A stretch of 64,000 nucleotides of DNA from Ilumatobacteraceae bacterium (GCA_044238435.1 JBIIDH010000001.1:5101-69100); one strand, 5' to 3'. Counted from the stretch's first letter, positions 15,482-57,085 are shown. A program made the numbers and translations. Notes: generated from the sequence alone by a model not told the origin.

Positions 15482-15539
15482 GCGGTACTCCTGGACTGAA
15501 AGGTTGCTGAGCTGGAATGGAACGAGTGAGAGGGACCGG

Positions 15540-17156: not shown

Positions 17157-17221
17157 TCCTTGTACGGTTGTCTCGCGAATGGCCGAGCCGGCCGCGTGTC
17201 GTGGAGGAGAGGGGCCGAGCC

Positions 17222-18391: not shown

Positions 18392-18417
18392 CCGTCGGCC
18401 TGGTTAGCCTCCACACC

Positions 18418-19584
18418 GTGTCCACCATCGCCAGCATCGTCGCCACCCCGGTCAACGTGCCGATGGTGGCGCCCTACCGGTTCTCGTTCGGCACTCTCGC
18501 CAGCTTCACCACCACCATCGTCGAGGTCACCGACAGTGACGGGGTCACCGGCATCGGCGAGACCCCGCACGGCGACCTCTCGGGCCTGATCTCCTCGATG
18601 GGCGCGCAGCTCGCCGGTTGCTCGGTCGACGACCTGAACGGGTGCGAAGCCCGGTGTGTGGCCCGCACCGGCTTCAGCCTGTGGGACGACTCGGCCAACG
18701 AGCGGCGGGCGTTCGGCGGCATCGAGATGGCGCTGTGGGACCTGCGGGCCAAGCGTGCCGGTGTTCCGCTGGTCGACCTGCTCGGTGGCCGAGTGCGCGA
18801 CAGCGTGGCGTTCACCGAGTACTTCGCGCTGCGCGTGGGCCGTGAGGAGACACCCGTCGACGTGGTGCGCTACTGCGAGCAGATCGCCGCCGATTTCGAC
18901 GCCCGGGTGTTCGAGGGCAAGCTCGGCGTGCTCGACGTGGAGACCGAGATGGCCATGGTGGCCGATCTGGTGCGGGCGCTCGGGCCGGGCCGGGTGCAGC
19001 GCCTCGATGCCAACGGCGTGTACACCGTGCCCACCGCTCGTCAGGTGGTGCGACGGCTCGCCGATCTGGGAGTGGGCTGGCTGGAAGACCCGTGCCGTAC
19101 CCACGACGAGACGGCCCGTCTACGCGCCGACGGGGCGCCGATCTCGTTCAGCACCCACCAGGTCGACCTCGCCCGCGCCGCCCGCGATGGCGTGCCCGAT
19201 GCCTTCTGCATCGACGCCACCGAGATGGGCGGCCTGCGACGCACGCAGGACTTCCTGCGCGCCTGCGCTGCGCTCGGCATCGACTTCTGGTGCTACAGCG
19301 GCGACGCCGGCGTGATGACCGCCGCCTACCTGCACCTCACCGCGGCGGAGGCATCGATGATCCGTCCGCACCAGAGCCTGTTCCGGTTCACCGCCGACGT
19401 GGTCGTCGAGCAGGGTCACTACTCGCCGAGGGGTGGTGTGCTGCCGGTGCCCGAGGCACCCGGCCTCGGTGTCACCATCGATCGGGCGGCCTTGGCTCGG
19501 CTCCATGAACGCTTCCGTGCCGAAGGGTCGATGGCGGCATCCGATGGCGACGGCGGGTACCGCCAGCAGTTCCGTCAGCAGTAG
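18418..19584 (+). CDS. enolase-superfamily enzyme (second tandem paralog)
   Basis: GTG start VSTIASIVATPVNVP, the same VSTI start as its neighbour. It has MR/MLE-like features (…LDANGVYT…EDP…). It lies 27 nt after the first copy. Confidence 0.8.
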   Translation: MSTIASIVATPVNVPMVAPYRFSFGTLASFTTTIVEVTDSDGVTGIGETPHGDLSGLISSMGAQLAGCSVDDLNGCEARCVARTGFSLWDDSANERRAFGGIEMALWDLRAKRAGVPLVDLLGGRVRDSVAFTEYFALRVGREETPVDVVRYCEQIAADFDARVFEGKLGVLDVETEMAMVADLVRALGPGRVQRLDANGVYTVPTARQVVRRLADLGVGWLEDPCRTHDETARLRADGAPISFSTHQVDLARAARDGVPDAFCIDATEMGGLRRTQDFLRACAALGIDFWCYSGDAGVMTAAYLHLTAAEASMIRPHQSLFRFTADVVVEQGHYSPRGGVLPVPEAPGLGVTIDRAALARLHERFRAEGSMAASDGDGGYRQQFRQQ

Positions 19585-20846: not shown

Positions 20847-22094
20847 TCAGTCGATGGTGCCGTAGGCGCCCTGATCGCCTGAGGCGGCGGCTGCGGTCAC
20901 CTCGTCGATCGACGCGCCGAGATCGGCGAGGAATGACTCCACCTTGTCGGCGTGCACGGCATTCACGGTGAGGTGCAGCGACGGGGGAGGGCCCTGCCGG
21001 TCGACGTACCAGCCGCGCCGCCACAGCGCGTCGGCGACCGCGTACACATCGAGTGCCGATGGGTCGGCAGCGCCGAACGACAGCAGCATCGCATCGGGTT
21101 CGGCGCGCAGCACCAGTTCGGGCATCGACCGCACGGCGGCAGCGATCTGCTCGGTGGCGCGTCGGGCGTCGGCCGTGAGGCGGAGGTACCCCTCGTCGCC
21201 CAGGTGGTGCATCACCGCCCACGCCGCGGCCATCGGACCGCCACCCTTGGTGCCCAGCACACCCGACGAGCCGTACATGCCGCCGAGCCAGTTGTCGGTG
21301 ACGAAGGTCTGGTAGGCACGCAGTCGCTTCGAGCGGTGCATGATCACCGACGCACCCTTCGCGGTGTAGCCGAACTTGTGCAGGTCGACCGAGATGCTGG
21401 TCACCCCCGGCACCGTGAAGTTCCACGGGGCGATGTCGTAGCCCAGCCGGGCGAGATACGTCAGCGTCACGCCGCCCATGCAGGCGTCGACGTGGCAGTT
21501 GATGTCGCGCTCGGCGGCCAGGGCGGCGATGTCGGCGATGGGGTCGACCACACCCTGCGGGTACTGGGGTGCCGAGCCCACCACCAGCACGGTGTCGTCG
21601 TCGATGGCGTCGGCCATCGCGTCTGCATCGGCTCGCCAGTCGTCGCGCACGGCAACCCGTCGGCTCTCGAGGCCGAAGTAGTAGCACCCTTTCTCGAACG
21701 CCGCGTGGGCACTGGTGGGCAGCACCACGTTCGGCCGGGCAACGCCTCGCTCGGCGCGGCCCCGCTCGCGTGCCGCCTTCACCGCCATGAGAATGCTCTC
21801 GGTGCCGCCACTCGTCATGAATCCGGCACCATCGGGGCCCGCCTGCAGCCAGTCGGCCACGATTCCCACCACCTCGGCCTGGATGGTGCGCAGGCTGGGG
21901 AACGCATCGGTGTTGAGGGCGTTGTCGGTGCTGAAGCGGCGGTGCGCCTCGTCGGCGACGGCCGACACCTCGGGCCCCGCGTAGTAGGCGAGCGTGAACG
22001 CCCGCCCGTCGCGCCACCGGACGTCGTGCTCCTTCAGCGCGTCGAGCCGGGCGAGCACCTGATCGGCAGGAACGCCGGAGGAGGGGAGTGTCAT
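20847..22094 (-). CDS. PLP-dependent group II decarboxylase / sphingosine-1-phosphate-lyase-like enzyme (start uncertain)
   Basis: 415 aa with a PLP-lysine context SISVDLHKFGYTAKGASV and a …MTSGGTESILMAV… motif. Its ATG overlaps the divergent aminotransferase ATG. Confidence 0.7.
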   Translation of the reverse strand: MTLPSSGVPADQVLARLDALKEHDVRWRDGRAFTLAYYAGPEVSAVADEAHRRFSTDNALNTDAFPSLRTIQAEVVGIVADWLQAGPDGAGFMTSGGTESILMAVKAARERGRAERGVARPNVVLPTSAHAAFEKGCYYFGLESRRVAVRDDWRADADAMADAIDDDTVLVVGSAPQYPQGVVDPIADIAALAAERDINCHVDACMGGVTLTYLARLGYDIAPWNFTVPGVTSISVDLHKFGYTAKGASVIMHRSKRLRAYQTFVTDNWLGGMYGSSGVLGTKGGGPMAAAWAVMHHLGDEGYLRLTADARRATEQIAAAVRSMPELVLRAEPDAMLLSFGAADPSALDVYAVADALWRRGWYVDRQGPPPSLHLTVNAVHADKVESFLADLGASIDEVTAAAASGDQGAYGTID

Positions 22095-23301
22095 GACGGC
22101 AACGTACCCGAGCAGCCCACTCGGGCCTGCCTACGCTCGGTTGGTGCGCACCGACGGCTTCCTCCTGAACCCCGACATCACGTTCCTGAACCACGGTTCG
22201 TTCGGAGCGTGCCCGGAGCCGGTGTTCGCGGCGTACCAGCGCCTGCAGCTCGAGATGGAACGCCAGCCGGTCGAGTGGTTGGCCCGTCGCTCCGACGACC
22301 TGCTGGGCGCTGCCCGGGCGCGCCTGGCCGCCTACCTCGGTGCGCAGGCCGACGACCTGGTGTACGTGCCCAACCCCACCACGGCGGTGAACATCGTGGC
22401 GCGCAGCCTGCGCCTGCAGCCGGGCGACGAGGTGCTCACCACCGACCACGAGTACGGTGCGATGAACCGCACCTGGCGGGTGATCTGCGAGCAGGCCGGG
22501 GCGCGCTACGTGCAGGTGCCCGTCCCCGTACCGGTCTCCACGCACGCCGACTTCGTCGAGCGACTGTGGGCCCAGGTCACCGAGCGCACCAAGGTGATCT
22601 TCCTCAGCCACATCACCAGCGACACCGCGCTCGTGTTCCCGGCCGACGAGATCTGCCGCCGGGCCAGGGCCGCCGGCATCTTCACCATCGTCGACGGGGC
22701 GCACGTGCCGGCCCACATCCCGCTGCACCTCGGCACCCTCGACGCCGACATCTACACCGGCGCCTGCCACAAGTGGCTGTGCGCCCCGAAGGGCTCGGCG
22801 TTCCTGTGGGCCCGCCGCGACGTGCAGCCGATGCTGCGTCCGCTGGTGGTGAGTTGGGGATGGGAGCCCGCCGTGCCCGGTCCCTCGCCGTTCATCGACC
22901 ATCACCAGTGGCAGGGCACCCGCGACCTGAGCGCGTTCCTGGCCACACCTGCGGCCATCGACTACGAGGAAGCCAACGACTGGGACGGTGTGCGCGAGCG
23001 CTGCCACGCCGCTGCCGTCGAGGCGAGCGCACTGCTGCACGGCGTCACCGGGTGCGAACCGTTCAGCCCCGAGCACACCGGCGACCAGCGTTCGCCCATC
23101 TGGTACGGGCAGATGGTGGCCATCCGCCTGCCCGACCACGTCGATGTGGCCGACCTGAAGCGGCGCCTGTACGACGACCACCGCATCGAGGTGCCCGTCT
23201 ACCGCTGGGCCGACATCCCCATCCTGCGCGTGTCGATCCAGATGTACAACACCCCCGACGACGTCGACCGCCTCGCCGCCGCCCTCCGCACGCTCCTCTG
23301 A
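22093..23301 (+). CDS. class V aminotransferase-fold PLP-dependent enzyme (cysteine desulfurase / isopenicillin-N-epimerase-like)
   Basis: 402 aa, …FLNHGSFGACPE…, with PLP Lys in GACHKWLCAPKGSAF. A strong SD GGAGGAGGGGAG lies 6 nt upstream. Confidence 0.75.
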   Translation: MTATYPSSPLGPAYARLVRTDGFLLNPDITFLNHGSFGACPEPVFAAYQRLQLEMERQPVEWLARRSDDLLGAARARLAAYLGAQADDLVYVPNPTTAVNIVARSLRLQPGDEVLTTDHEYGAMNRTWRVICEQAGARYVQVPVPVPVSTHADFVERLWAQVTERTKVIFLSHITSDTALVFPADEICRRARAAGIFTIVDGAHVPAHIPLHLGTLDADIYTGACHKWLCAPKGSAFLWARRDVQPMLRPLVVSWGWEPAVPGPSPFIDHHQWQGTRDLSAFLATPAAIDYEEANDWDGVRERCHAAAVEASALLHGVTGCEPFSPEHTGDQRSPIWYGQMVAIRLPDHVDVADLKRRLYDDHRIEVPVYRWADIPILRVSIQMYNTPDDVDRLAAALRTLL

Positions 23302-23369
23302 CCCGCCACCACCCGCCGCGATGAGCACCCTGCGCAGCAGGTGCGCATGTTGCTCATCGCGGTGGCGGG
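23302..23369. other. large imperfect hairpin (9-bp plus 10-bp stem with a 7-nt bulge, 23-nt loop containing two TGCGCA palindromes) between the aminotransferase and amidohydrolase genes
   Basis: The arms cccgccacc/ggtggcggg and gcgatgagca/tgctcatcgc are seen directly. The element starts 1 nt after the aminotransferase stop. It is a candidate intrinsic terminator or attenuator, or a REP-like element. Confidence 0.4.
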
Positions 23370-23392
23370 GGAGGGCGGCTAACGTCGGCGCG

Positions 23393-24265
23393 ATGGGGAT
23401 GCCGACCGACATCGGGGTGATCGACCTCATGCTGGGCATCCCCGAACCGGGCATGCGCGCCCACTGGTACGACTTCTTGAAGCCGAACCTGCGCGACACC
23501 GAGAGCCAGTCGATGGCGATGCCGGCGCAGTACCTGTTCAAGGACATCCCCGACGACCCGAGCGATGCCGACATGATCGCCTGGACCGTCGACCAGATGA
23601 ACGGCCACGGCATCGCCAAGGCGCTCATCGGCGTCGACCTCGCCGGCGGCATCCAGAACGACGCCATCGTCCGACACCCCGACCGTTTTTTCGGCTGCCT
23701 GCACGTCGATCCCAACGGCGGTATGGCCGTGGTGCGCGCCATCCAGGAGGCGCACGACCGGCTCGGCATCAAGGGCGTGTCGCTGTTCCCCTCGGGCTGC
23801 AACCCGCCGGTGCCCATCGACGACAAGCGCATGTACCCGGTGTACGCGAAGTGCGCCGAACTCGGCATCGCCGTGCTGTGCTGCGTGGGCGTGCCCGGGC
23901 CGCGGCTGCCGATGGCGGCCCAGCACGTCGAACGCATCGACGAGGTGTGCTGGTACTTCCCCGAGCTCACCTTCGTGATGCGCCACGGCGGCGAACCCTG
24001 GGTCGACCTCGCCGTGAAGCTGCTGCTGAAGTGGCCGAACCTCTACTACAGCACGTCGGCGTTCACGCCCCGGCGCTACCCGCAGGAGATCATCGACTTC
24101 GCCAACACCCGGGGGAGCGACAAGGTGATGTACGCCGGCTACTTCCCGATGGGCCTCAGCCTCGGCCGCATCTTCCGCGAACTGCCGAACGTGCCGCTGC
24201 GCGACGAGGTGTGGCCGAAGTTCCTGCGCGACAACGCCGTGCGCGTGTTCGGACTCGACCGATGA
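23393..24265 (+). CDS. amidohydrolase-2 / TIM-barrel metal-dependent hydrolase family protein (ACMSD-like)
   Basis: Start at MGMPTDIGVIDLMLGIPE. It has a C-terminal …DKVMYAGYFPMG… motif. Its stop overlaps the next ATG (ATGA). An alternative upstream ATG at 23321 lies inside a large hairpin. Confidence 0.6.
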   Translation: MGMPTDIGVIDLMLGIPEPGMRAHWYDFLKPNLRDTESQSMAMPAQYLFKDIPDDPSDADMIAWTVDQMNGHGIAKALIGVDLAGGIQNDAIVRHPDRFFGCLHVDPNGGMAVVRAIQEAHDRLGIKGVSLFPSGCNPPVPIDDKRMYPVYAKCAELGIAVLCCVGVPGPRLPMAAQHVERIDEVCWYFPELTFVMRHGGEPWVDLAVKLLLKWPNLYYSTSAFTPRRYPQEIIDFANTRGSDKVMYAGYFPMGLSLGRIFRELPNVPLRDEVWPKFLRDNAVRVFGLDR

Positions 24266-26623: not shown

Positions 26624-28138
26624 GTGAGCCGCCTCAACCGCACCCGTACTCGGCGCGAGGCGACCGGCGCCACGCCACAGCCGTTCACCCCGCTGCGCAA
26701 CCCGTACCGTCCGGTGGAGGTGCTGTCGGCCGACCAGGTCGAGCACATCCACCGCTCGTCGCTGCAACTGCTGGCCACCACCGGGATGCGCATCCTCGAT
26801 GCACAGGCGCGGCGCTACTTCGCCGACGCCGGGTGCGTGGTCGACGACCTGATCGTGCGGTTCGACCCCGAGATGGTGGAGGCCACCGTCGCCCTCGCTC
26901 CTGCCGAGTTCACCCTGCGGGCCCGGAACCCGCAGCACTCGATCACGCTCGGCGGCAACCATGTGGCGTTCAGTGCCGTGGGAGGCCCCGCCTTCACCCA
27001 CGACCTCGACCGCGGGCGTCGCGGCGGCTCGGCCGCCGAACAGCGCGAGTACCTGCAGCTCATCCAGATGCTGGGCGTGGTGCACCAAGAGGGTGGCGGC
27101 CCGTTCGAGGCACTCGACCTGCCCGCCGAGACCCGGCACCTCGACCTCTACCTGAGCCTCATCCGCACCCTCGACAAGAACTGGCAGGCCGTTGCGCTGG
27201 GCCGCGAGCGCGCGGCCGACGCCATCGACATGGCCGCCATCGCCCTCGGCACCGACCGCGACGGTCTGGCTGCCATGCCCGCCGTGATGGCGGTCATCAA
27301 CACCAACACCCCGCTCACGCTCGACATCCCGATGGCCGAGGGGCTCATCGAACTCGCGGGCGCCGGACAGGCGGTGTGCGTCACCCCGTTCACGCTCGCC
27401 GGCGCCATGGCCCCGGCCACCATCGCCGGCGCGCTGGTGCTCCAGAACGCCGAAGCGCTGGCCGGTATCACCCTCACCCAACTGGTCAGGCCCGGCGCAC
27501 CAGCCATCTACGGCTCGTTCACGTCGAACGTCGACATGCGCAGCGGCTCGCCGGCCTTCGGCACTCCTGAGTTCACCCGTGCCGCGCAGGCGAGCGGCCA
27601 ACTGGCCCGCCGCTACGGGCTGCCGTTCCGGTCGTCGAACACCACGGCCTCGAACGCCGTCGACGCCCAGGCCGCCTACGAGAGCGGCATGTCGCTGTGG
27701 GGCGCCGTGATGGGCGGCGCCCACCTGGTGAACCACGCCGCAGGCTGGTTGGAGGGAGGGCTCACGGCGTCGTTCGAGAAGCTGATCATCGACGCCGAGA
27801 TGCTGCAGATGATGGCCGAGTACCTGAAGCCCATCGAGGTGAACGACGCCGAGATCGGCCTCGACGCCATCGCAGCCGTGGGGCCCGGCGGGCACTTCTT
27901 CGCCTCACCCCACACGATGGAGCGCTACGAGCGGGCGTTCTACTCGCCACTCGTGTCGGACTGGCGCAACTTCGAGACCTGGCAGGAGTCAGGCTCGATC
28001 GACGCCACCCACCGCGCCAACCGCATCTGGAAGCAGTTGCTCGACCAGTACGAGGCGCCCGTGCTCGATCCAGCCATCGACGAAGCGCTCGTCGACTTCG
28101 TGGTCCGCCGCCGGGCGGCGCTCGACTCGGTGGCCTGA
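26624..28138 (+). CDS. MttB-superfamily methyltransferase, non-pyrrolysine type (second paralog)
   Basis: 504 aa, uninterrupted. It shares blocks with the first copy ([64 protein letters not shown]). GTG start 10 nt after the FKBP stop. Confidence 0.85.
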   Translation: MSRLNRTRTRREATGATPQPFTPLRNPYRPVEVLSADQVEHIHRSSLQLLATTGMRILDAQARRYFADAGCVVDDLIVRFDPEMVEATVALAPAEFTLRARNPQHSITLGGNHVAFSAVGGPAFTHDLDRGRRGGSAAEQREYLQLIQMLGVVHQEGGGPFEALDLPAETRHLDLYLSLIRTLDKNWQAVALGRERAADAIDMAAIALGTDRDGLAAMPAVMAVINTNTPLTLDIPMAEGLIELAGAGQAVCVTPFTLAGAMAPATIAGALVLQNAEALAGITLTQLVRPGAPAIYGSFTSNVDMRSGSPAFGTPEFTRAAQASGQLARRYGLPFRSSNTTASNAVDAQAAYESGMSLWGAVMGGAHLVNHAAGWLEGGLTASFEKLIIDAEMLQMMAEYLKPIEVNDAEIGLDAIAAVGPGGHFFASPHTMERYERAFYSPLVSDWRNFETWQESGSIDATHRANRIWKQLLDQYEAPVLDPAIDEALVDFVVRRRAALDSVA

Positions 28139-33220: not shown

Positions 33221-34057
33221 TCAGCGGTCGGTGAGGACTTCGCGCCAGACGGCCTCGAGCCGGTCGAGGCGTTCGGTGGCGTGGGCCCGCAGCCGGTCGG
33301 CCACGGCCGAGACGAACAGGTCGAACACCGCCAGCGTGCCGGTGTGGCTGTCGAACGGTCCGCTGCCGGCGGCAGCGAGCACCACCGTCACATCGGCCGT
33401 CTGTGCGAGCGGCGACAGCACGCTGTCGGTGAGCGCCACCGACCACACCCCCGCCGCCCGGGCCGTCTGCGCGACGTCGACCACCCACCGCTCGTAGCGG
33501 CGCAGGTCGAGCGCCACCAGCACGTCGCCGGCACGAAGCAGCGCAGCCTGACGGCGCACGGCGATGGGGTTGCCGTCGATGAGCGCGACGTCATCGCGGA
33601 GCGACCCGAGATCGCCGACGAACTGCAGCGCCACACCGCGCGAGGCATCGCCCGACAGCACGAAGATGCGCGCCTCGCGTTCGGCGAGGTGGTCGACCAC
33701 TGCGGCGAGCGTGTCGGCCGATACCGCCCCGAGCGAGGCGTGCACATTGGCCACCTCGAGCTGCTGATGACGGGTGGCGAGGCCGGCACCCGCTGGCTCG
33801 CGGATGCGTTCGGCGGCCGGACGCAACTGGGCGGCCAGTTCGGCCTGCACCGCAGCCTGGAGCGCCGTGAACCCGTCGTACCCGAGTTTGGTGGACAGGC
33901 GCACCACTGTCGCTGCGCCCGAACCCGATGCCGTGGCCAGTTCGGCGACGGTGCCGAAGGCCACCAGTTGGGGCCGGGCCAGCACCACTTCGGCCACGCG
34001 TCGTTCTGCTGTGGTGAGCGAAGCCCCCTGAGCACCGATTCGATCCGCCACCAGCAT
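33221..34057 (-). CDS. MurR/RpiR-family transcriptional regulator (HTH plus SIS domain)
   Basis: 278 aa from MLVADRIGAQGASLTTAERRVAEVVLARPQLVAFGTVAELA (HTH_6). SIS-like C-terminus (…IFVLSGDASRG…). Divergent from the hydroxylase gene. Confidence 0.75.
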   Translation of the reverse strand: MLVADRIGAQGASLTTAERRVAEVVLARPQLVAFGTVAELATASGSGAATVVRLSTKLGYDGFTALQAAVQAELAAQLRPAAERIREPAGAGLATRHQQLEVANVHASLGAVSADTLAAVVDHLAEREARIFVLSGDASRGVALQFVGDLGSLRDDVALIDGNPIAVRRQAALLRAGDVLVALDLRRYERWVVDVAQTARAAGVWSVALTDSVLSPLAQTADVTVVLAAAGSGPFDSHTGTLAVFDLFVSAVADRLRAHATERLDRLEAVWREVLTDR

Positions 34058-34165
34058 CGCCGCGGAGTGTAGTCGCAGGCCGCGGAGTGTGTTCGTTCCG
34101 GTCCGCCTTCCACGGGAACGGTGACCAAGTGGAACAGTTCTTCCAGCCTGTGTAGTGTCTGGAAC

Positions 34166-35155
34166 ATGACGACCCGACGCGACCTCGACCTCGACCTCGA
34201 CATCCGCCACCGTCAGCACCGGCCCCCGGCGGTGGTGGTCTGGGGCGACCAGACCGGTTGGTCGGCACCCGACTCGGTCGACTGCATCGACGACCTCGTC
34301 GGCGCGGCAGGCCACGCCGGTCGGCGTCTGCCTGCTGCGGTGCACGACGCCCTGGTCGACTTCGCCGACGAGCCGCACCCCAGCGGCGCGCTCCTCGTCC
34401 GCGGAGCACCGATCGGTACGGTCGGTCGCACCCCCGCCTCACCCACCTCCATCGGGGCCAAGGACCGCACCAGCGAGTTCACGCTGCTGGCCGTGGCCCG
34501 CCGGCTGGGCCAGCCCGTCGGATACCTACCCGAGCACGGAGGCGACATCGTCCAGAACATCGTGCCCGTGGCCGGCACCGCCGACCGGCAGGTGTCGACC
34601 TCGTCGAAGGTCGAGCTGATGTTCCACACCGAGGCCGCCTTCCACCCGCATCGACCCCGCTACCTGGTGCTGCTGTGCCTGCGCGGCGACTCGGCTGCCC
34701 ACACCACGCTGTCGTCGATCGGCGAAGTGCTGCCCCTGCTCCCCCACGACGTCGTCGACACCCTGTTCGCTCCGCGCTTTCGCACTGCGGTCGACGAGAG
34801 CTACCTGCACGGACGCCAGAACGTGTTGGGCGCGCCGATGGCCGTGCTCAGCGGGCGCCGCGATCGACCGACGATGGTGTTCGACGCCGACCTGATGGTG
34901 GGTGTCGACGGTGAGGCCGACGAGGCGTTGCAGGCGCTCGGCGCCGCAGTTGCCTGCCACAGCACCTCCGTCTCGCTCTGTGCCGGCGACGTGCTGGTCG
35001 TCGACAACACCGTCGCCGTGCACGGCCGCACTCCCTTCGTCCCCCGCTTCGATGGCACCGACCGCTGGCTGCAGCGCAGCTTCGTCGTCGCCGACCTCGC
35101 ACCCAGCGCCGGCGAGCGGCGGGGCCGGGTCGTCGTCACCGAGTTCGGCGTCTGA
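34166..35155 (+). CDS. clavaminate-synthase-like (TauD/TfdA family) Fe(II)/2OG-dependent amino-acid hydroxylase (VioC/AsnO-like)
   Basis: HxE…H triad: ELMFHTEAAFHPHRPRYLVLLCLR plus DNTVAVHGRTPF, the canonical CAS-like signature. The start is uncertain (GTG at 34121 or ATG at 34166). Confidence 0.75.
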   Translation: MTTRRDLDLDLDIRHRQHRPPAVVVWGDQTGWSAPDSVDCIDDLVGAAGHAGRRLPAAVHDALVDFADEPHPSGALLVRGAPIGTVGRTPASPTSIGAKDRTSEFTLLAVARRLGQPVGYLPEHGGDIVQNIVPVAGTADRQVSTSSKVELMFHTEAAFHPHRPRYLVLLCLRGDSAAHTTLSSIGEVLPLLPHDVVDTLFAPRFRTAVDESYLHGRQNVLGAPMAVLSGRRDRPTMVFDADLMVGVDGEADEALQALGAAVACHSTSVSLCAGDVLVVDNTVAVHGRTPFVPRFDGTDRWLQRSFVVADLAPSAGERRGRVVVTEFGV

Positions 35156-35211
35156 CACCCGGGCACCGAACCCGCAGGGGGCGCTGAACCAGCCGAGGCG
35201 CAGGGCAGACT

Positions 35212-36279
35212 GTGGGCATGCTCGTCCTGCCGCCCGCACCGTCACGCAGTTTCGGGAGCGACAACGCCGCGGGGATGCACCCGCGGGTACTCGGCGCCCT
35301 CGCCGCAGCCAACGACGGCCACGCGGTCGCTTACGGAGCCGACCGGTGGACCGCCGAGTGCACCGACCGGCTCCGCGACCTGTTCGGCCCCCGCACCACG
35401 AGCCTGCTGGTGTGGAACGGCACCGGTGCCAACGTCACGGCCCTGGCGGCGATGCTGCGGCCGGCCGACTGCGTGGTGTGCAGCCAGTGGGCGCACATCG
35501 CCGTCGACGAGACCGGTGCACCCGAGCGCATCCTCGGTGCGAAGTTGCTGACACTCCCCTCCTCCGACGCCAAGGTGGTGCCCGAGCAGCTCGACGAACT
35601 CGCCCATCTCATCGGCGTGCAGCACCATGCCCAGCCTGGTGTGCTGTCGATCACCCAGAGCACCGAACTCGGCACGCTCTACACGCCTGACGAGATCGCC
35701 GCGCTGTGCGACGCTGCGCATCGGCTCGGTATGCGCGTGCACCTCGACGGCGCACGGTTGGCCAACGCCACGGCAGCGCTCGGCGGCACGGTCGAGGCGC
35801 TGCGGTCGTTCACCGTCGACGCCGGGGTCGACGTGCTGAGCTTCGGCTTCACCAAGGCGGGCGCAGCGTTCGGCGAAGCGGTGGTGTTCCTCGATCCCGA
35901 ACTCGCCGGCCGGGCCATGTTCATCCGCAAGCAGGTCACCCAACTGCCGTCGAAGATGCGGTTCGTCGCGGCCCAGCTGCTGGCCCTGCTCGACGGCGAC
36001 CTGTGGCTCGAACTGGCGCGCCACTCGAACGCGATGGCCAAGCGGCTCTACGAGGCAACGGTGCACCTCCCCGGCGTGCGTTTCGACTCGCCGCCCCAGG
36101 TGAACAGCGTCTTCCCACTCCTGCCGCCCGAGGTCATCGCTCCGCTGCAGCAGTGGTGCTCGTTCTACGACTGGGACGTCTCGCGTCACCAGGTGCGTTG
36201 GATGGCGGCCTGGGACACCAGCGCCGACGACGTCGACCAGTTCGTCGCCGGGGTGGCCGCCGCGCTCGGCACACGATGA
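35212..36279 (+). CDS. low-specificity threonine aldolase family PLP enzyme (beta-hydroxy-alpha-amino-acid aldolase)
   Basis: 355 aa. N-terminus SFGSDNAAGMHPRVL matches the threonine-aldolase DxRSDT-type motif. PLP Lys in FGFTKAGAAFGEAVVF. Confidence 0.75.
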   Translation: MGMLVLPPAPSRSFGSDNAAGMHPRVLGALAAANDGHAVAYGADRWTAECTDRLRDLFGPRTTSLLVWNGTGANVTALAAMLRPADCVVCSQWAHIAVDETGAPERILGAKLLTLPSSDAKVVPEQLDELAHLIGVQHHAQPGVLSITQSTELGTLYTPDEIAALCDAAHRLGMRVHLDGARLANATAALGGTVEALRSFTVDAGVDVLSFGFTKAGAAFGEAVVFLDPELAGRAMFIRKQVTQLPSKMRFVAAQLLALLDGDLWLELARHSNAMAKRLYEATVHLPGVRFDSPPQVNSVFPLLPPEVIAPLQQWCSFYDWDVSRHQVRWMAAWDTSADDVDQFVAGVAAALGTR

Positions 36280-36431: not shown

Positions 36432-36737
36432 ATGGCCGCTGTCGAGACTCTGTTCCACCGCATCGTCACCGATGACGCGTGGATGGCGAACGCCGAGTGC
36501 AAAGGCCTCACCCACTTGTTCTTCCCCGCTGCGGCCGAACGTCCGCAGGCACGCGAGCGACGCGAAGCAGCCGCTGAAGCCGTCTGTGGGGCGTGCCGGG
36601 TGCAGAGCACCTGCCGCGAGTTCGCCCGCACCAACCACGAGTACGGCTTCTGGGGTGGCGAGAGCGAAGACCAACGGCATCAGGCCGGGTTCCGACTCAT
36701 CGCCCCCATCGGCGTACGCGCCCGCGACGCAGTCTGA
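36432..36737 (+). CDS. WhiB-family (Wbl) transcriptional regulator
   Basis: 101 aa with four Cys (AECKG … CGACRVQSTCREFA) and a C-terminal GFWGGESEDQR turn. It has a leader of about 150 nt with a possible TTGACT-16nt-TACGCT promoter at about 36291..36318. Confidence 0.85.
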   Translation: MAAVETLFHRIVTDDAWMANAECKGLTHLFFPAAAERPQARERREAAAEAVCGACRVQSTCREFARTNHEYGFWGGESEDQRHQAGFRLIAPIGVRARDAV

Positions 36738-36801: not shown

Positions 36802-37872
36802 ATGTCCGCCGATGCCCAGCAGCGCGCCGCCGTCGCCTCGGCATGGGCCGAATACGGCGACCCGCGGGCCATCGTCGCACTCGACGAGGTGAGTGCCGAC
36901 GTCTCGACGAACCGCGTGTACCGCATCCACCTCGACGACGGCAGCACCTGTGTGACCAAGGTGTCGTCGTACGGGTCGTACTTCTTGTTCGTCGAGGACC
37001 ACGATCGCCTGCACCGCTGCGCCCGATTGCTCGACGACACCCGCTTCGCCGGAATGCTCGCCGGGGTGTGGACCGAGCGGGGCCGACCCGACCGCATCTT
37101 CACCTGGTACGACCAGTCGATGTGGGCGGTGTTCTACGACGACGTGCCACGCGCCGACTCGCTGCCCCGCGTGCTCGGTGTCGACCAGGTCGAGAACCTC
37201 GGCCGCGAGATCGCCGAGTTCCATCTGGCGTGCACCGACATCGCGCCGCACATCCCGGGCAGCTCGAAGACCATCAAGAGCGATGCCATCCATCTGCTCG
37301 AACTGCTCGAGAGTCCGTTCGCCCCGCGCAACTTCGACCTGCCTCCCGAAGCGATCGGCCTGCTGTGGCGCCACACCCACGAGTTCCTCGAGCGGCTGGT
37401 CGAGGTGGGCTACGACGAGTGGCCGAAGATCCCCGTCCTCATCGACTGGAACCTCGGCAACTTCTCGGTCGCCCCCGCCGACCCGGCGCACCCCGACAAG
37501 GGGTTCCGCCTGTTCAGCCGCTGGGACTACGACTGGTTCCGCATCGAGCCGCGCCTGCTCGACTTCTACTTCCTGTCGCGCGTGTCGAGCCGTACCGGCG
37601 ACCGCACCCGTTTCACCTACGGCGCCCACACCCTCACCGAACCCACGTTCCTGGCGCTGGTGCAGGCCTATCGCTCGGTGTTCCCCTTGTCTGCCGACGA
37701 GGTGCGCTTCCTGCCCGAGGTGTACCGCTTCTTCATCCTCAACTACGTCGTGCGTGAGGGAGCGAGGTTCTTCCGGCCCGACCTGTGCGCCCAGTTCCGC
37801 CGCGACACGGTGCGCTCGTACCTGCCGTCGTTCGACCGTCACGACTTCTCACCGCTGTTCGATCTGGCCTGA
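36802..37872 (+). CDS. phosphotransferase (APH/choline-kinase-like) family protein
   Basis: 356 aa with a Brenner-like motif PVLIDWNLGNFSV and a kinase-like fold. Confidence 0.6.
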   Translation: MSADAQQRAAVASAWAEYGDPRAIVALDEVSADVSTNRVYRIHLDDGSTCVTKVSSYGSYFLFVEDHDRLHRCARLLDDTRFAGMLAGVWTERGRPDRIFTWYDQSMWAVFYDDVPRADSLPRVLGVDQVENLGREIAEFHLACTDIAPHIPGSSKTIKSDAIHLLELLESPFAPRNFDLPPEAIGLLWRHTHEFLERLVEVGYDEWPKIPVLIDWNLGNFSVAPADPAHPDKGFRLFSRWDYDWFRIEPRLLDFYFLSRVSSRTGDRTRFTYGAHTLTEPTFLALVQAYRSVFPLSADEVRFLPEVYRFFILNYVVREGARFFRPDLCAQFRRDTVRSYLPSFDRHDFSPLFDLA

Positions 37873-37924: not shown

Positions 37925-38737
37925 ATGGAGTACACCCAGATCGAGGTGGCGCGTCGGGGCCCCGTCAGCGTCATCACCCTGAACCGGCCCGAGAAGCTGA
38001 ACGCGTGGACGCCCACGATGGCCGAGGAACAGGCGCACGCCATTCGTTCCGCCAACGACGACCCGACCATCGGTGCGATCGTGATGACGGGTGCCGGACG
38101 CGGTTTCTGCGCCGGCGCCGACATGGACGCCACGTTCCGGTCGCGGCTCGACGGCGTCGATCCCGGACGTGACACGGCGGGTGGCGTGGGCGGAATGCCC
38201 GCCGGTCTCGACTGGGTGGCACTGCTGCGTGAGAGCAAGCCCGTGGTGTGCGCGGTGAACGGTGCGGCGGTGGGCATCGGTGTGACCATGTGCCTACCCG
38301 CCGACCAGATCGTCGCGTCCACCAAGGCCCGGTTCGGCATGGGCTTCATCACCATGGGCCTGGTGCCCGAACTGGCCAGCACCCGGCTGCTCGGCGCCCG
38401 GGTGGGATTCGGCCGGGCAAGCGATCTGTTCCTGTCGGGCCGCCTCGTCGACGCCGCCGAGGCCCACCGCATCGGGCTCGCCGACCGGCTGGCCGAACCC
38501 GACGACCTGCTCGACGAGGCCGTCGCCGTGGCCCTGTCGTACGCGGCCAACCCCGACCGCCAGCTCCGGATGACGAAGCGCTTGCTCACCGAGCACATGG
38601 TCGAGAGCGATCTGCAGCACATCCAGCGCCGCGAGCAGGAACTGCTGGCCGAGTGCTGGGCGTCGCCCGAGCACGCCGAAGCGGTGGCGGCCTTCCTGGC
38701 CAAGCGTCCTCCGGTGTTCCGACCGGCCGACGAGTAG
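37925..38737 (+). CDS. enoyl-CoA hydratase/isomerase (crotonase) family protein
   Basis: 270 aa. …VITLNRPEKLNAW…GAGRGFCAGADM…VNGAAVGIGVTM… are the crotonase signatures. Confidence 0.85.
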   Translation: MEYTQIEVARRGPVSVITLNRPEKLNAWTPTMAEEQAHAIRSANDDPTIGAIVMTGAGRGFCAGADMDATFRSRLDGVDPGRDTAGGVGGMPAGLDWVALLRESKPVVCAVNGAAVGIGVTMCLPADQIVASTKARFGMGFITMGLVPELASTRLLGARVGFGRASDLFLSGRLVDAAEAHRIGLADRLAEPDDLLDEAVAVALSYAANPDRQLRMTKRLLTEHMVESDLQHIQRREQELLAECWASPEHAEAVAAFLAKRPPVFRPADE

Positions 38738-47668: not shown

Positions 47669-47702
47669 GCCGTCGGGTGCCGCGCCGGTGCCGCCCCAGG
47701 CC

Positions 47703-50360
47703 TCACCCTTGCGGATCGGCACCGGGGTCCTCCACCTCGACCGCGCTCGACGCGGCGACCACCCCGCGGAACAGTTGCTGTGCCGCCTGGTCGGCTGCAC
47801 GGCGGGTGTCGCGTTCGGGTGCCACCAGGGCCAGCTGGCGCAGCAGGTCGATGAGTTGCTTGGTGGTGCGCACGAAGTCGCCGCCGCTCAGTTCCTCGTC
47901 GGCCACCACCTCGGCGAAGCCCTCCCCCGCCGCCCAGGCGTAGGCGATGGCTACGAAGGTGGGGTCGGGCGGGCGGTGTTCGGCCAGTCCGGCAGCGTCT
48001 TCGATCGAACGCAGTTCGTCGCTGACGGCTCGGATGCGCTGCCATCGACGCCGGGCGAGCGGCGACGGGAACCACGGGGGCGGCGGCGGGTCGGGGCTGC
48101 GGTGCTCGTACACGAACACCGACACCAGCGCCGCCAGCACCGGCGGTTCGAGACCGTCGAGCAGACCTTGGCGGAGGCATTCGACGATCAGCAGATCGCA
48201 CTCGTGGAACGTGCGCGCCAGGATGTCGCCCGCCGGGGTGAGCGACCACCCGTCGACGTAGTCCCAGTTCTGGAGGATGCGCAGCACGCGGTCGAAATCA
48301 CGCGAGATGGTCTGGCTGCGACCGCGCATGCGCTGACGCAGTTCGTCGATCTCGCGGGCCACGCGGGCGGCCTGGTTCGCAGCCTTGAGCCGATCGGCCA
48401 GATCGGGATCGGCCTCGACGGGATGCGCCGCGAGCGCATCCTCCACCTCACCGACCCGGCGCCGACCCCGCGTGTGCGCTTCCACCTCGGCGCGCTCGAG
48501 CCGTCGAGCCACCTCGCGCTGGTAGTCGGCGCTGTTGGGTGCGAAGTCGTCGGGCAGTTCGATGTGCCCGATGGCCCGCGGCACCTCGTCGAAGTCGGTG
48601 GCATCGAGTTGGATGAGGTCGCGCCGCGTGGTGACGCCACTCACACGGATGCCGTTCTTGCGGTGCGCCGAGGCCAGCACCGCCACCCGCCCGGCGTAGC
48701 GGCCCTTGTCGGCGTACACGACGTCGCCCGGCTTCAGCTTCAGCAGCGCCAGCGTGATCGGGTCGTCGCGACCGATCGACGGCGCCTGCCCACCCGCCAG
48801 TTCGTTGCGGCGCTCGAGCAGTCGGCGGTACTCGTCGATGTCGCCGTACGGGCTCACCGATGCAGCGGTGAGGTCGCGCAGATGCTGCTGACGGCGTTCG
48901 AGACGCGACTCGATCTTCACCACGTCGCGGTCGGCCTGGTACTGGGCGAACGAGAGGTTGAGCAGATGATGGGCCTGGTCGCTGGTGTACGACCGCACCA
49001 GGTTGGCCGCCATGTTGTACGTGGGACGGAACGCCGAGTTGAGGTGGAACACACGGCTCGACGCCAGCGCGGCGATCTGGTCGAACGGCACGAACGGGCT
49101 CCACAGCACGATGGCGTTGCCGAGATCGTCGATACCACGGCGGCCGGCCCGCCCGGTGAGCTGGGTGTACTCGCCCGGGCTGAGGAACGCGTGGTGGTCG
49201 CCGGTGAACTTGGTGAGTTTCTCGATGACCACACACTTGGCGGGCATGTTCAGGCCCACTGCGAGGGTCTCGGTGGCGAACACCACCTTCACCAGCCCGG
49301 CGGTGAAGCAGGCCTCGACCACCTCCTTGAACGGCGGCACCATACCGGCGTGGTGCGCGGCGATGCCCGCTTCGAGCTGGGCGAGGAACTGGCCGTAGCC
49401 CAGCACGGCCAGGTCGGCAGCTTCCATCGAACCGAGTCGGGCGTCGACGATGGCCCGGATGCGGTCGCGTTCGTCGCCAGTGGTGAGCCGCAGTCCTGCT
49501 GCCAGAGCCGTACGGGCGGCCTCGTCGCACTGGTTGCGACTGAAGATGAAGTAGATGGCGGGCAGCATCTCGTCGTGCTCGAGCACGTCGATGACGTCGA
49601 GCCGAGTGGGCGTGTACAGCTTGCGCCGTCCCTGGGTGCCCTTGCGTTGGCGACCGCCACGCGGCGCCCGGGCAGCTTCACTGTCGATGCGCAGTGCGTT
49701 CTGGTTGGGGCGACCACCCACCAGCACCGGCAGCAGGTGAAGGCGGCCGTGGGTCTTGTCGCCGACCAGGTAGAGGTTCTCGAGGCGGACGGGGCGTCGC
49801 TCCTCGACGATGGCCCGCGTGGGGCCGCGCACGGTGGAGATCCAGTCGGCGAGCTCCTGCGCGTTGCTCACCGTGGCCGACAGGCACACCAGGCGCACCG
49901 CATCCGGCAGGTGGATGATGACCTCCTCCCACACCGGTCCGCGGTAGGTGTCCTGCAGGAAGTGCACCTCGTCGAGCACCACCACGTCGAGCAGATCGAG
50001 GCCGCTGCTGCGCGCGTAGATCATGTTGCGCAACACCTCGGTGGTCATCACCACCACCGGCGCATCGCCATTGATGGTGTTGTCGCCGGTGAGCAGGCCC
50101 ACCGAGTCGGGACCGTACCGCTCGACGAGGTCGTGGTACTTCTGGTTCGACAGCGCCTTGATGGGCGCCGTGTAGAACGCCCGTCGCCCGGCTCGTCGGG
50201 CTGCCTCGATTGCGTACTCGGCCACCACCGTCTTGCCGCTGCCCGTGGGGGCCGCCACGAGCACCGACTCGCCGGCGTCGAGCGCGTCGAAGGCCTGCAG
50301 TTGGAACCCGTCGAGCGGGAAGGCGTACTGCGAGGTCAGTTCGGCCCGGTCGGCGCGCAC
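47703..50360 (-). CDS. helY: Ski2-like DEAD/DEAH-box ATP-dependent RNA helicase
   Basis: 885 aa. Walker A APTGSGKT, DEVH box, SAT, C-terminal DSHCT-like region. It is located next to tatC as in other actinobacteria. Confidence 0.9.
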   Translation of the reverse strand: MRADRAELTSQYAFPLDGFQLQAFDALDAGESVLVAAPTGSGKTVVAEYAIEAARRAGRRAFYTAPIKALSNQKYHDLVERYGPDSVGLLTGDNTINGDAPVVVMTTEVLRNMIYARSSGLDLLDVVVLDEVHFLQDTYRGPVWEEVIIHLPDAVRLVCLSATVSNAQELADWISTVRGPTRAIVEERRPVRLENLYLVGDKTHGRLHLLPVLVGGRPNQNALRIDSEAARAPRGGRQRKGTQGRRKLYTPTRLDVIDVLEHDEMLPAIYFIFSRNQCDEAARTALAAGLRLTTGDERDRIRAIVDARLGSMEAADLAVLGYGQFLAQLEAGIAAHHAGMVPPFKEVVEACFTAGLVKVVFATETLAVGLNMPAKCVVIEKLTKFTGDHHAFLSPGEYTQLTGRAGRRGIDDLGNAIVLWSPFVPFDQIAALASSRVFHLNSAFRPTYNMAANLVRSYTSDQAHHLLNLSFAQYQADRDVVKIESRLERRQQHLRDLTAASVSPYGDIDEYRRLLERRNELAGGQAPSIGRDDPITLALLKLKPGDVVYADKGRYAGRVAVLASAHRKNGIRVSGVTTRRDLIQLDATDFDEVPRAIGHIELPDDFAPNSADYQREVARRLERAEVEAHTRGRRRVGEVEDALAAHPVEADPDLADRLKAANQAARVAREIDELRQRMRGRSQTISRDFDRVLRILQNWDYVDGWSLTPAGDILARTFHECDLLIVECLRQGLLDGLEPPVLAALVSVFVYEHRSPDPPPPPWFPSPLARRRWQRIRAVSDELRSIEDAAGLAEHRPPDPTFVAIAYAWAAGEGFAEVVADEELSGGDFVRTTKQLIDLLRQLALVAPERDTRRAADQAAQQLFRGVVAASSAVEVEDPGADPQG

Positions 50361-50372
50361 AGGTGCATCGTG

Positions 50373-51182
50373 TCAGGTTGCGGTGGCTTGTGCGGCACGT
50401 CGGCGCTTCTGGACCAGATAGCCGATGAGGACGGCGATCAGGTAGAAGAACGTCATCGGCAGCGCCAGCGCCATCATGCTGTACGGATCGCCGCTCGGCG
50501 TGATGACCGCGGCGATGACGAAGATCGTGAGGATGGCGTAGCGCCAGCCCTTGATGAGGGTCTGCGGGGTGAGCACGCCGACGAGCTGCAGGAACACCAA
50601 CAGCACGGGGAACTCGAACGCAATGCCGAACGCAGCGACCATGAGGCCGACGAGTCGCACGTATTCGCTCACCCGGAAGATCGACTGCACATCCTCGCCA
50701 GCCCACGAGATGAGGAAGTCGAGCGCCTTGTCGAGCGTCCAGTAGGCGACGTACGCGCCCATCAGGAACAGCGCCAACGAGCAGAGGATGAACGGGATGG
50801 CGTACTTCTTCTCCTTGGCGTGCATCGCCGGCACGATGAACCGCCAGAGCTGCCACATCAGCACCGGCAGGGCGATGATGACGCCGCCGTAGGTGGCGAT
50901 GGAGAGCCGGGTACTGAAGCCCTCGAGGGGGGCGGTGGAGATGACGTTGCCATTGCTCAACTCGCAGAACTGCGGCTTCAGCGCACACAACTGCCGGTAG
51001 GGCTCGAGCAGGAAGTCCATCACCGGGTCGTAGAACGCGAGGATGATGACGATGCCCACCACCACGGCGAGCAGGCCGCGGATGATGCGCGTGCGCAGTT
51101 CGGCCAGGTGATCCGTGAGGGTCATCTGGTCGTCGGGCGTCTTCACCTGCGGCCGCTCGGCACGCTTGAACGGGTTCTTCAC
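50373..51182 (-). CDS. tatC: twin-arginine translocase subunit TatC
   Basis: 269 aa, six TM helices. …MTLTDHLAELRTRIIRGL… is the TatC N-motif. The ATG overlaps the tatA stop (ATGA). Confidence 0.9.
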   Translation of the reverse strand: MKNPFKRAERPQVKTPDDQMTLTDHLAELRTRIIRGLLAVVVGIVIILAFYDPVMDFLLEPYRQLCALKPQFCELSNGNVISTAPLEGFSTRLSIATYGGVIIALPVLMWQLWRFIVPAMHAKEKKYAIPFILCSLALFLMGAYVAYWTLDKALDFLISWAGEDVQSIFRVSEYVRLVGLMVAAFGIAFEFPVLLVFLQLVGVLTPQTLIKGWRYAILTIFVIAAVITPSGDPYSMMALALPMTFFYLIAVLIGYLVQKRRRAAQATAT

Positions 51183-51730
51183 GACGCGTCGGCCTCACCG
51201 TCGGGTGCGGAGGTGGGCTGGGCCGGGTTGTTCGGCCGATACGTGTGGTCACGGTCCATCACGACGCTGTCGAGCATCGACAGGTCGGGGCCGGCTGCCT
51301 CGGTGGGCGTCTCGAGGGCCGACGGCACCGGCGGGGGTGTTGGTGCCGTTTCGTGTGCGCTCCACATCTGTTTCGGTTCGGGCGTCGCCACCGGCGGTGC
51401 GGCACCGGTGGCATCGGCTCCGGTGTCGGCCGCACTGTCGGCCCCGGTGTCGGGCGCCGGTGCGACCCCCGCGGGCTTCTTGCCCTCCAGCATGTCGGCG
51501 GCAATGTCGAACGATGCAGCCTGCTTGAACGCGTCGGCGGTCTCGCGCATTTCGCGCATCGGCTCGTCGAGGGCGGTCTTCAGTTCGCTCTGGAAGCCCG
51601 TGGTCATCTTCTTGAACTCGGCGTAGGTCTTGCCGAACGAGCGGATCGCGTCGGGCAACTTCTCCGGGCCGAGAATGATCAACGCCAGCAAGAGCAGGAA
51701 GACGATCTCGCTGCCGGAGAAGTTGAACAC
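51179..51730 (-). CDS. tatA: twin-arginine translocase TatA/TatB-family protein (long Pro/Ala-rich tail)
   Basis: MFNFSGSEIVFLLLLALIILGPEKLPDAIRSFGKTYAEFKK is the canonical TatA/B TM plus amphipathic helix. Confidence 0.85.
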   Translation of the reverse strand: MFNFSGSEIVFLLLLALIILGPEKLPDAIRSFGKTYAEFKKMTTGFQSELKTALDEPMREMRETADAFKQAASFDIAADMLEGKKPAGVAPAPDTGADSAADTGADATGAAPPVATPEPKQMWSAHETAPTPPPVPSALETPTEAAGPDLSMLDSVVMDRDHTYRPNNPAQPTSAPDGEADAS

Positions 51731-51799
51731 GGCGCAAGTCTAGGAGAACAGCCCGCTGGTTCAGCAGCGACACAGACGAGTGGGTGGCACACTGGCGGG

Positions 51800-52531: not shown

Positions 52532-52543
52532 GCAGCCTGGCGG

Positions 52544-54207: not shown

Positions 54208-54220
54208 CGCTGACGGCGAC

Positions 54221-57081: not shown

Positions 57082-57085
57082 GATG

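Follow-up and report, generated by a model that had tools for sequence, protein, structure and literature searches.

We examined a stretch of DNA of 64,000 nucleotides from an Ilumatobacteraceae bacterium (GCA_044238435.1, JBIIDH010000001.1:5101-69100; hereafter the window), with a G+C content of about 69% and with genes whose close relatives are found almost only in metagenome-assembled genomes (MAGs) of Ilumatobacteraceae and other Acidimicrobiia. Positions 33221 to 36279 hold a regulator of the RpiR/MurR family, a divergently transcribed hydroxylase of the Fe(II)/2-oxoglutarate (2OG) type, and a pyridoxal 5'-phosphate (PLP) enzyme of the L-threonine aldolase family:

33221..34057, minus strand: RpiR/MurR-family regulator, 278 amino acids (aa), divergent from the hydroxylase gene, with HTH_6 and SIS domains
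34058..34165, no strand: divergent promoter/operator region, 108 bp; operator role predicted from sequence
34166..35155, plus strand: predicted clavaminate-synthase-like (CSL) family Fe(II)/2OG amino-acid beta-hydroxylase, 329 aa, Pfam TauD
35218..36279, plus strand: L-threonine-aldolase-family PLP enzyme (LTA), proposed retro-aldolase for a beta-hydroxy amino acid, Pfam Beta_elim_lyase

The three genes and their families are almost certainly as listed; a first-pass annotation had placed them at the same coordinates, and both the family searches and the sequence agree with it. Gene starts were refined from homologue lengths together with the sequence. For the hydroxylase, ATG 34166 is favored over GTG 34121 because its homologues are 318-330 aa long. 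The regulator likely starts at ATG 34057, which gives the 278 aa seen in its relatives, and not at the start of the longest open reading frame, which reaches 34378. The LTA is 353 aa long from ATG 35218 or 355 aa from GTG 35212, leaving 62 nt or 56 nt, respectively, after the hydroxylase stop codon (35155). A terminator scan found no terminator-like site between the hydroxylase and LTA genes in the window and nothing else of relevance, and a sigma-70 promoter scan found nothing.

Family and substrate pocket of the hydroxylase

The hydroxylase matches Pfam TauD (PF02668) with 56.3 bits against a cutoff of 27 and belongs to the CSL family. The HxE...H...R signature previously reported for it is present as H154-T-E156, H286, R300 and R304 (329-aa numbering), of which H154, E156 and H286 are the predicted metal ligands, while R300 is predicted to bind 2OG and R304 the substrate carboxylate. 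These residues align to H178, E180, the second His, R328 and R332 of KDO1, the L-lysine 3-hydroxylase of Catenulispora acidiphila, and are invariant in 118 full-length homologues. The pocket residues E123, H124, S144, D210-E211-S212, D240 and D242 are conserved in 113-118 of these.

We took the ligand-binding positions from the structural paper on KDO1 and KDO5 (PMC6224419) and mapped them onto the window hydroxylase, giving 13 positions that comprise the metal ligands, the arginines for 2OG and the carboxylate, and the substrate pocket. In KDO1, D234 and D268 form salt bridges with the N-epsilon of lysine, and S168, S236, E180 and R332 hold its backbone (PMC6224419). The 13-position string of the window hydroxylase is E-H-S-H-E-D-E-S-D-D-H-R-R and that of KDO1 E-G-S-H-E-D-E-S-D-D-H-R-R, so that 12 of the 13 positions are the same. 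The string of AsnO (E-K-N-H-E-P-P-S-D-A-H-R-R) differs at five (K, N, P-P and A). The lysine-binding residues S168, D234, S236, D268, the Glu at position P2 and R332 of KDO1 correspond to S144, D210, S212, D240, E123 and R304; E211 and D242 likewise pair with E235 and D270. The sole mapped difference is at P3, His124 in the window enzyme and Gly in KDO1.

This pocket, with its KDO1-type D-E-S...D..D pattern, resembles those of enzymes acting on basic amino acids and bears out the earlier assignment to the CSL hydroxylases of free amino acids. Read through the aligned residues, it points to a substrate whose basic side chain has a primary amine or a guanidinium group at its end. The substrate is quite probably a basic amino acid or a derivative of one; that it is specifically free L-lysine is plausible, although we would stop short of calling it likely, and trimethyllysine is a very improbable substrate.

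An AlphaFold2 (AF2) model of the hydroxylase, built on a 51-sequence alignment, reached a mean pLDDT of 92.5. In the PDB, the model is closest to KDO1 bound to lysine (6f2a; TM-score 0.85-0.87, rmsd 2.7 Å), ahead of AsnO (0.80) and the arginine enzymes VioC and CmnC (0.76-0.84), and TM-scores of 0.73-0.87 to KDO1, AsnO, VioC, CmnC, OrfP and CAS show the CSL fold in the model. By sequence, the best matches among solved structures are AsnO (9.3e-52, 41% identity) and then KDO1 (1.4e-46, 38% identity). The nearest NCBIfam models all scored under their curated cutoffs: GntD, the best (NF041363, 202.2 against 345), clavaminate synthase (NF043003, 185.6 against 450) and VioC (TIGR03946, 176.5 against 418.6). 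A search for trimethyllysine hydroxylase (TMLH) or gamma-butyrobetaine dioxygenase (TIGR02409-like) found no match, only a 20-bit C-terminal match to TmpA.

In a neighbor-joining tree of 50%-identity cluster representatives, the window hydroxylase falls in a clade apart from both KDO1 and AsnO, and separate from the KDO1 representatives P0257 and P0217. It belongs to an uncharacterised CSL subfamily and is not a KDO1 orthologue. Database names for the family vary, with some NCBI MAG records reading "L-lysine 3-hydroxylase" and many in JGI reading "L-asparagine oxygenase". We rejected a TauD-like sulfonate dioxygenase, as the enzyme has a CSL pocket with amino-acid-binding residues, and an AsnO orthologue, as the AsnO pocket (Lys at P3, N146 at P6, P-P-S and D241) is absent save for an Asp equivalent to D241.

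Another protein of the representative library (P0246, 972 aa) joins a CSL hydroxylase domain, 39% identical to that of the window and with pocket residues E-K-S...D-Y-S-D-D, to a complete lysine--tRNA ligase, whose NCBIfam score is 495 bits (cutoff 468). The fusion may be a Rosetta-stone clue that ties this region of the CSL family to lysine, or a product of gene calling.

Linkage and control of regulator, hydroxylase and aldolase

The LTA belongs to Pfam Beta_elim_lyase (PF01212; 144.7 bits against 27). Its closest solved relatives are the L-threonine aldolases 7w0i (4.3e-70) and 5vye (3.5e-69), with residues 9-350 covered, and it aligns end to end with the Pseudomonas-type L-threonine aldolases (L-TAs) and phenylserine aldolase (7w0i, 5vye and 1v72; 1e-59 to 1e-70). 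It shares with them the PLP lysine and the HxDGAR motif: FGFTKAG, with the Schiff-base lysine, aligns to GGTKNG, and HLDGARL to HMDGARF of 5vye. To our knowledge, no hydroxylase is paired with these enzymes. The LTA stays below the cutoffs for GntG (NF041359, 50.1 against 230) and for E. coli-type LtaE (NF007825, 27.9 against 312), and its sequence bears no mark of specialisation that we could find. Hydroxylation of the KDO1 type (3S) yields the erythro (allo-like) isomer, which low-specificity L-TAs usually accept. By analogy, the LTA might accept the product of the hydroxylase.

Relatives of the hydroxylase are encoded in at least 505 species-level genomes. We sampled 80 genome loci, 80 metagenome loci and 11 contigs and placed the neighboring genes in the fetched loci by tblastn; a crude GC3-based gene caller performed badly on lower-GC loci. 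All 80 retrieved loci come from Acidimicrobiia or Actinomycetota MAGs. An RpiR orthologue is found in the fetched flank of 112 of 117 assessable loci. It lies no more than 1 kb upstream of the hydroxylase in 104 (97 divergent, 7 co-directional), farther upstream in 7 and downstream in 1, and the divergent pair is nearly invariant in Ilumatobacteraceae-type loci. Of 112 assessable loci, 98 have an LTA orthologue in the fetched flank; it is adjacent to the hydroxylase (<200 bp) in 41 of them, separated from it in 44 and otherwise oriented in 13.

The association of hydroxylase and LTA, first noted in the window, is kept beyond local synteny, in at least four arrangements and with two regulator families. 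The window has the first of these, RpiR(-)|Hyd->LTA->WhiB, followed by further genes:

36432-36737: WhiB, downstream of the LTA
36802-37872, plus strand: U356, a 356-aa protein, following WhiB
37925-38737: enoyl-CoA hydratase, downstream of U356; a ribokinase gene is also downstream

In the second arrangement, RpiR->LTA(-)|DUF4350-Hyd fusion, WhiB is absent and the flanks are different (L087, L088, L089, L110, L112, L155 and L171). The third has a GntR/FCD regulator between the two enzymes, LTA->GntR/FCD->Hyd (L090, L092 and L093), and the fourth a binding-protein gene, LTA-SBP-RpiR-Hyd (L134). Across these arrangements, the orthologues retain 58-66% (hydroxylase), 57-59% (LTA) and about 50% (RpiR) identity to the window proteins; taken over all four, LTA orthologues beside a hydroxylase orthologue are 57-67% identical. 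Through inversion, domain fusion, regulator swap and turnover of the flanks, only a regulator, the hydroxylase and the LTA remain constant. This comparative evidence for a common pathway is good, if not conclusive, and we regard it as probable that the hydroxylase and the LTA would act in one pathway.

Several of these loci have features of their own. In the fusion clade (L087:8001-9608, L088:8001-9560, L089:8001-9587 and L171:6001-7641, with P0122, P0308, P0334, P0370 and P0382), the hydroxylase carries an N-terminal DUF4350/GIFT-like domain of about 200-250 aa, and its catalytic domain is about 60% identical; a comparable length, about 430-680 aa, is seen in many of the closest cluster representatives at 50% identity. 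One locus (L085:7071-10481) has RpiR followed by a hydroxylase that is 46% identical and keeps the D-E-S pocket, then a group II PLP decarboxylase, and then a TetR and an MFS transporter gene. The decarboxylase is nearest to L-2,4-diaminobutyrate (DABA) and desferrioxamine-type lysine decarboxylases; it could be an alternative PLP partner that acts at C-alpha of a hydroxylated basic amino acid and would then give a hydroxy-diamine. Two loci (L132:6995-8659, minus strand, and L134:3561-4961, plus strand) encode orthologous SBP_bac_8/SBP_bac_1 (CUT1-type) lipoproteins, 53% identical and at different positions beside the RpiR-hydroxylase pair, which among solved structures are closest to binding proteins for sugars and sn-glycerol-3-phosphate. 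This CUT1-type protein is absent from the window and from all other fetched loci, and remains a hint only. Finally, in Ilumatobacteraceae-type and fusion-type neighborhoods alike, a Bac_luciferase-family (LLM) oxidoreductase gene is found repeatedly, at most a few kb from RpiR:

L001:434-1303: LLM oxidoreductase
L002:6196-7065: LLM oxidoreductase
L088:3849-4691: LLM oxidoreductase
L089:3749-4426: LLM oxidoreductase
L171:69-914: LLM oxidoreductase

The window lacks it, and there an SPFH/Band_7 gene abuts rpiR.

The regulator has the N-terminal HTH_6 (4.3e-16) and C-terminal SIS (3.1e-12) domains of RpiR/MurR regulators. No specific effector can be assigned to it because all NCBIfam equivalog scores are far under their cutoffs. 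The intergenic region that it shares with the hydroxylase contains the palindrome GGAACAGTTCTTCC at 34131-34144, of the type GGAAC-N4-GTTCC, which is the sole match to GGAAC-N4-6-YTTCC in the window, along with extra half-sites at 34095-34099 (GTTCC), 34115-34119 (GGAAC) and 34161-34165 (GGAAC). The palindrome is conserved: of 85 unique intergenic regions between RpiR and hydroxylase genes, 42 contain it, where shuffles would give 0.2. It is found in 76 of 164 regions upstream of the hydroxylase, compared with 1 of 76 for WhiB and 0 of 64 for U356 as controls.

A -10-like TAGTGT (34153-34158), flanked by half-sites, lies 7 nt before the hydroxylase ATG at 34166. On the other side, two copies of the direct repeat CCGCGGAGTGT, 20 bp apart, directly precede the rpiR start at 34060-34070 and 34080-34090; the minus-strand reading of the repeat includes a -10-like TACACT 8 nt before the rpiR ATG, and GGAG(T/C)(G/A)TAG beside this start is kept in most relatives. 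Because these -10-like elements lie 7-8 nt before both start codons, the sequence suggests that the hydroxylase mRNA is leaderless or nearly so, and rpiR may be leaderless as well.

Operator-like palindromes accompany the other arrangements too. Fusion-type loci have a related palindrome, TGAAAC-N4-5-ATTTCA, in the intergenic region common to LTA and hydroxylase, and in the GntR-type lineage (L090:7880-8010 and L093:5000-5200) ATTGGTC-N9-GACCAAT lies just upstream of the hydroxylase start. The latter looks like a typical GntR-like palindrome and would fit a swap of the regulator together with its operator. Where the LTA is separated from the hydroxylase, none of 40 LTA upstream regions carries the palindrome, and we therefore rejected co-regulation of the separated LTA by this element. 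The first-pass annotation had put the pair under the divergent RpiR, which holds for the hydroxylase but not for the LTA, separated and then palindrome-free in many loci. Since the operator-like palindromes sit at the hydroxylase and not at separated LTAs, the hydroxylase would be the regulated, committed step, with the LTA under the same control only where the two share a promoter region.

Proposed pathway and its alternatives

With three assigned families, intact catalytic residues, a KDO1-like pocket, a conserved palindrome and the linkage of regulator, hydroxylase and LTA in hand, we propose a pathway whose substrate, regiochemistry, acceptance of the hydroxylated product by the LTA, repression by RpiR, effector and catabolic role are all predicted. 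The module would be a substrate-inducible system of two enzymes. RpiR, as a putative repressor, would bind the GGAAC-N4-GTTCC palindromes flanking the -10 element of the hydroxylase promoter. Once the promoter is released, the Fe(II)/2OG oxygenase would hydroxylate C3 of a free basic L-amino acid, at best guess converting L-lysine to (3S)-3-hydroxy-L-lysine as KDO1 does. The LTA, as a low-specificity PLP enzyme of its family, would then cleave the C2-C3 bond to give glycine and an omega-amino aldehyde. In the case of lysine, the aldehyde would be 4-aminobutanal (delta-1-pyrroline), which could enter gamma-aminobutyrate (GABA)/succinate metabolism. We favor, with some reservation, beta-hydroxylation of lysine or another basic amino acid followed by retro-aldol cleavage to glycine and an amino aldehyde as the best account of the module.

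A number of observations weigh against this account. Among the first 84 loci, 66 had both genes, with a tight junction (<200 bp) in 28; in the other 38 of these window-family loci, 0.2-8 kb of unrelated, often opposite-strand genes lie between the pair (DinB/MDMPI-like; NicX with a hydrolase, ACAD and TetR; an acyltransferase; GpsA). In Ilumatobacteraceae-type loci, the LTA is always directly upstream of WhiB, as a housekeeping gene of a syntenic block might be. Fourteen loci whose sequence extends 2.5 kb or more to each side lack an LTA, and in one locus (L071) WhiB comes immediately after the hydroxylase. The arrangements that retain the LTA are not fully independent either, because a single ancestral adjacency may underlie all of them. 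No third pathway gene, such as an aldehyde dehydrogenase or a transporter, was consistently found around the module, where the other inserted or flanking genes were APH with ACAD, a K+ transporter and a RimK-like gene. Neither the KDO1 gene nor an Amycolatopsis relative has an RpiR or LTA neighbor at its locus. With regard to the substrate, the sequence is slightly more similar to AsnO than to KDO1, the clade is distinct from that of KDO1, P3 is His and not Gly, and the lid is 4 residues shorter; the SIS domain, the DUF4350/GIFT-like N-terminal domain and the CUT1-type binding protein also hint at a sugar-like effector or ligand and not at plain lysine.

The two enzymes could thus be independent, with RpiR and the hydroxylase forming a self-contained unit and the LTA serving as a general glycine/threonine aldolase in an LTA-WhiB-U356 syntenic block. 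The unrelated insertions, the fixed position next to WhiB, the loci without an LTA and the palindrome-free separated LTAs all favor this, as do the decarboxylase that partners the hydroxylase in L085 and the character of the LTA as a typical Pseudomonas-type L-TA (about 1e-70 to 5vye and 7w0i). We nevertheless consider independence somewhat unlikely, given that the LTA stays by the hydroxylase where WhiB, U356 and all other flanks differ, and that the pairing persists through inversion to a divergent pair with a palindrome-bearing common intergenic region, through the GntR swap and through domain fusion. By our estimate, a gene present about once per genome would fall within 10 kb by chance in something of the order of 0.5% of cases.

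The remaining alternatives keep the order of hydroxylase and aldolase and change the substrate. L-arginine or homoarginine (giving 4-guanidinobutanal), L-ornithine, 2,4-diaminobutyrate or a sugar- or phospho-sugar-like lysine conjugate might be used in place of lysine, since the D-x-S...D..D sub-pocket is common to arginine hydroxylases (CmnC, Q-Q-S-H-E-D-N-S-D-D), VioC and CmnC are close structural matches, the best NCBIfam match GntD acts on a cyclic arginine derivative, and the decarboxylase of L085 is nearest to DABA and lysine decarboxylases; the sugar-type hints would suit a conjugate. P2, however, is Glu as in KDO1 and AsnO and not the Gln of the arginine and ornithine enzymes (PMC6224419), the D-E-S triplet and the top structural match are those of KDO1, and the sugar-type binding protein occurs in 2 loci only, so that we hold these substrates to be unlikely. 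An AsnO-like enzyme feeding 3-hydroxy-Asn or 3-hydroxy-Asp from L-asparagine or L-aspartate to the LTA would agree with AsnO being the best solved-sequence match and with the JGI labels, and is improbable nonetheless: the defining residues (Lys at P3, N146 at P6, P-P-S and Ala at P16) are replaced by H, S, D-E-S and D, the AsnO-type representatives group in a clade of their own, and KDO1 is the better structural match. Least probable of all, and by a reading that the first-pass annotation had raised, the pair would carry out a bacterial version of carnitine steps 1-2, with trimethyllysine hydroxylated and cleaved to glycine and 4-trimethylaminobutanal in connection with nearby betaine genes. 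The chemical logic is the same, and two MttB genes, a dimethylglycine-dehydrogenase-like gene and a SoxA-like gene do lie 5-30 kb upstream. The hydroxylase is a CSL-clade enzyme, though, without a TMLH/BBOX-type NCBIfam match beyond the 20-bit TmpA tail, and a pocket with two Asp for the N-epsilon, which hold a primary amine in KDO1, would not be expected to suit a quaternary ammonium. The betaine genes sit behind unrelated genes and accompany the module in no related locus examined. The trimethyllysine/carnitine interpretation is therefore an analogy and not a supported assignment, and a tie to the betaine genes is likewise unsupported.

For the favored lysine-type route, GntD and GntG of guanitoxin biosynthesis offer a biochemical precedent of retro-aldol cleavage after hydroxylation, where GntG performs the retro-aldol step; the two are also the best, if sub-threshold, NCBIfam matches of the window proteins. 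GntD and GntG come from the same two families in the same order and similarly beta-hydroxylate a basic amino acid and cleave it to glycine and an aldehyde. They belong to a cyanobacterial toxin cluster and act on L-enduracididine, and the window proteins score far under the respective cutoffs (202 against 345 and 50 against 230). Unlike that cluster, the window module comes without other biosynthetic genes, has a substrate-type regulator and is spread across an order-level lineage of Acidimicrobiia. Steps 1-2 of carnitine biosynthesis (TMLH and the 3-hydroxy-trimethyllysine aldolase) follow the same logic of C3 hydroxylation and cleavage to glycine and a C4 amino-aldehyde, but TMLH is on a different branch of the TauD superfamily, its substrate is quaternary and the pathway is biosynthetic and eukaryotic. 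Among single enzymes, AsnO (PDB 2og5-7), the L-asparagine beta-hydroxylase, acts on a free amino acid and has Glu at P2, as does the window hydroxylase; its pocket differs at P3, P6, P12-13 and P16, and its gene lies in the nonribosomal peptide synthetase cluster for the antibiotic CDA. KDO1 shares the CSL fold and the catalytic and lysine-binding residues. Because the KDO1-clade loci that we checked have neither RpiR nor LTA, the module would be specific to the Acidimicrobiia clade. At the KDO1 locus itself (L172:7001-9599; CP001700.1), two genes of 300 and 207 aa with overlapping or abutting starts and no Pfam match follow, flanked by HTH_3, TPR and TIR proteins, a context that looks unrelated to the window module.

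Our search of the accessible literature on such hydroxylases and aldolases found no account of a regulator-controlled, catabolic-looking module with a lysine-type pocket in Acidimicrobiia. The chemistry is established in carnitine and guanitoxin biosynthesis and both enzyme families are well known; the module itself appears to be undescribed. As a tentative proposal, Acidimicrobiia of freshwater and soil may degrade lysine or a related, possibly conjugated, basic amino acid through C3 hydroxylation and retro-aldol cleavage under RpiR control, perhaps with a sugar-like effector. If so, this would be a new entry in the short list of bacterial routes for degrading lysine and basic amino acids, a catabolic mirror of carnitine biosynthesis steps 1-2 and a natural, regulated example of a hydroxylase-plus-aldolase logic so far known only from biosynthesis. 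The host lineage is poorly cultured and common in lakes, rivers, soil and activated sludge. As the family is also large, the route could matter for the supply of glycine, nitrogen and C4 units. As an uncharacterised CSL subfamily, the hydroxylase clade is also of interest for biocatalytic C-H hydroxylation, and a hydroxylase with its matched natural aldolase would be useful for making or cleaving beta-hydroxy amino acids.

Neighboring genes in the window

The betaine genes noted by the first-pass annotation are part of a methylated-amine catabolic region upstream of the module (1393-28138):

1393-2601: DAO oxidase
3010-5214: SoxA-like Fer2_4+GCV_T protein
9169-11154: SBP_bac_5 (ABC) binding protein
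13022-15841: DAO+GCV_T dimethylglycine-dehydrogenase-like protein
15540-17156 and 26624-28138: two MttB-family methyltransferases
17168-19584: two enolase-superfamily genes
20847-22094: Pyridoxal_deC
22093-23301: class-V aminotransferase
23321-24265: Amidohydro_2

Between this region and the module lie genes for a Vps62-like membrane protein, YggU and an SPFH protein. The betaine genes and the enoyl-CoA hydratase are thus present as first described, but they are not conserved beside the module in related loci.

U356 has orthologues in about 60 loci (for example L002:14377-15441), always after WhiB, with a mean column identity of 76% over 16 orthologues. Searches of Pfam, NCBIfam and the PDB returned no match, even with a 16-sequence profile, and a single-sequence AF2 model was unusable (pLDDT 40.7). 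By eye, its motifs LIDWNLGNF and WDYDW recall those for catalysis and Mg binding in small-molecule kinases of the APH/choline-kinase-like type.

Farther downstream, the minus strand from about 47700 to 62800 looks, by eye from translations of the open reading frames, like a block typical of actinobacteria. Its genes seem to encode a helicase, TatC, TatA and PafA/Dop-like proteins, together with a small Pup-like protein that has QKGGE at its end (59285-59557) and an AAA ATPase (61076-62797).

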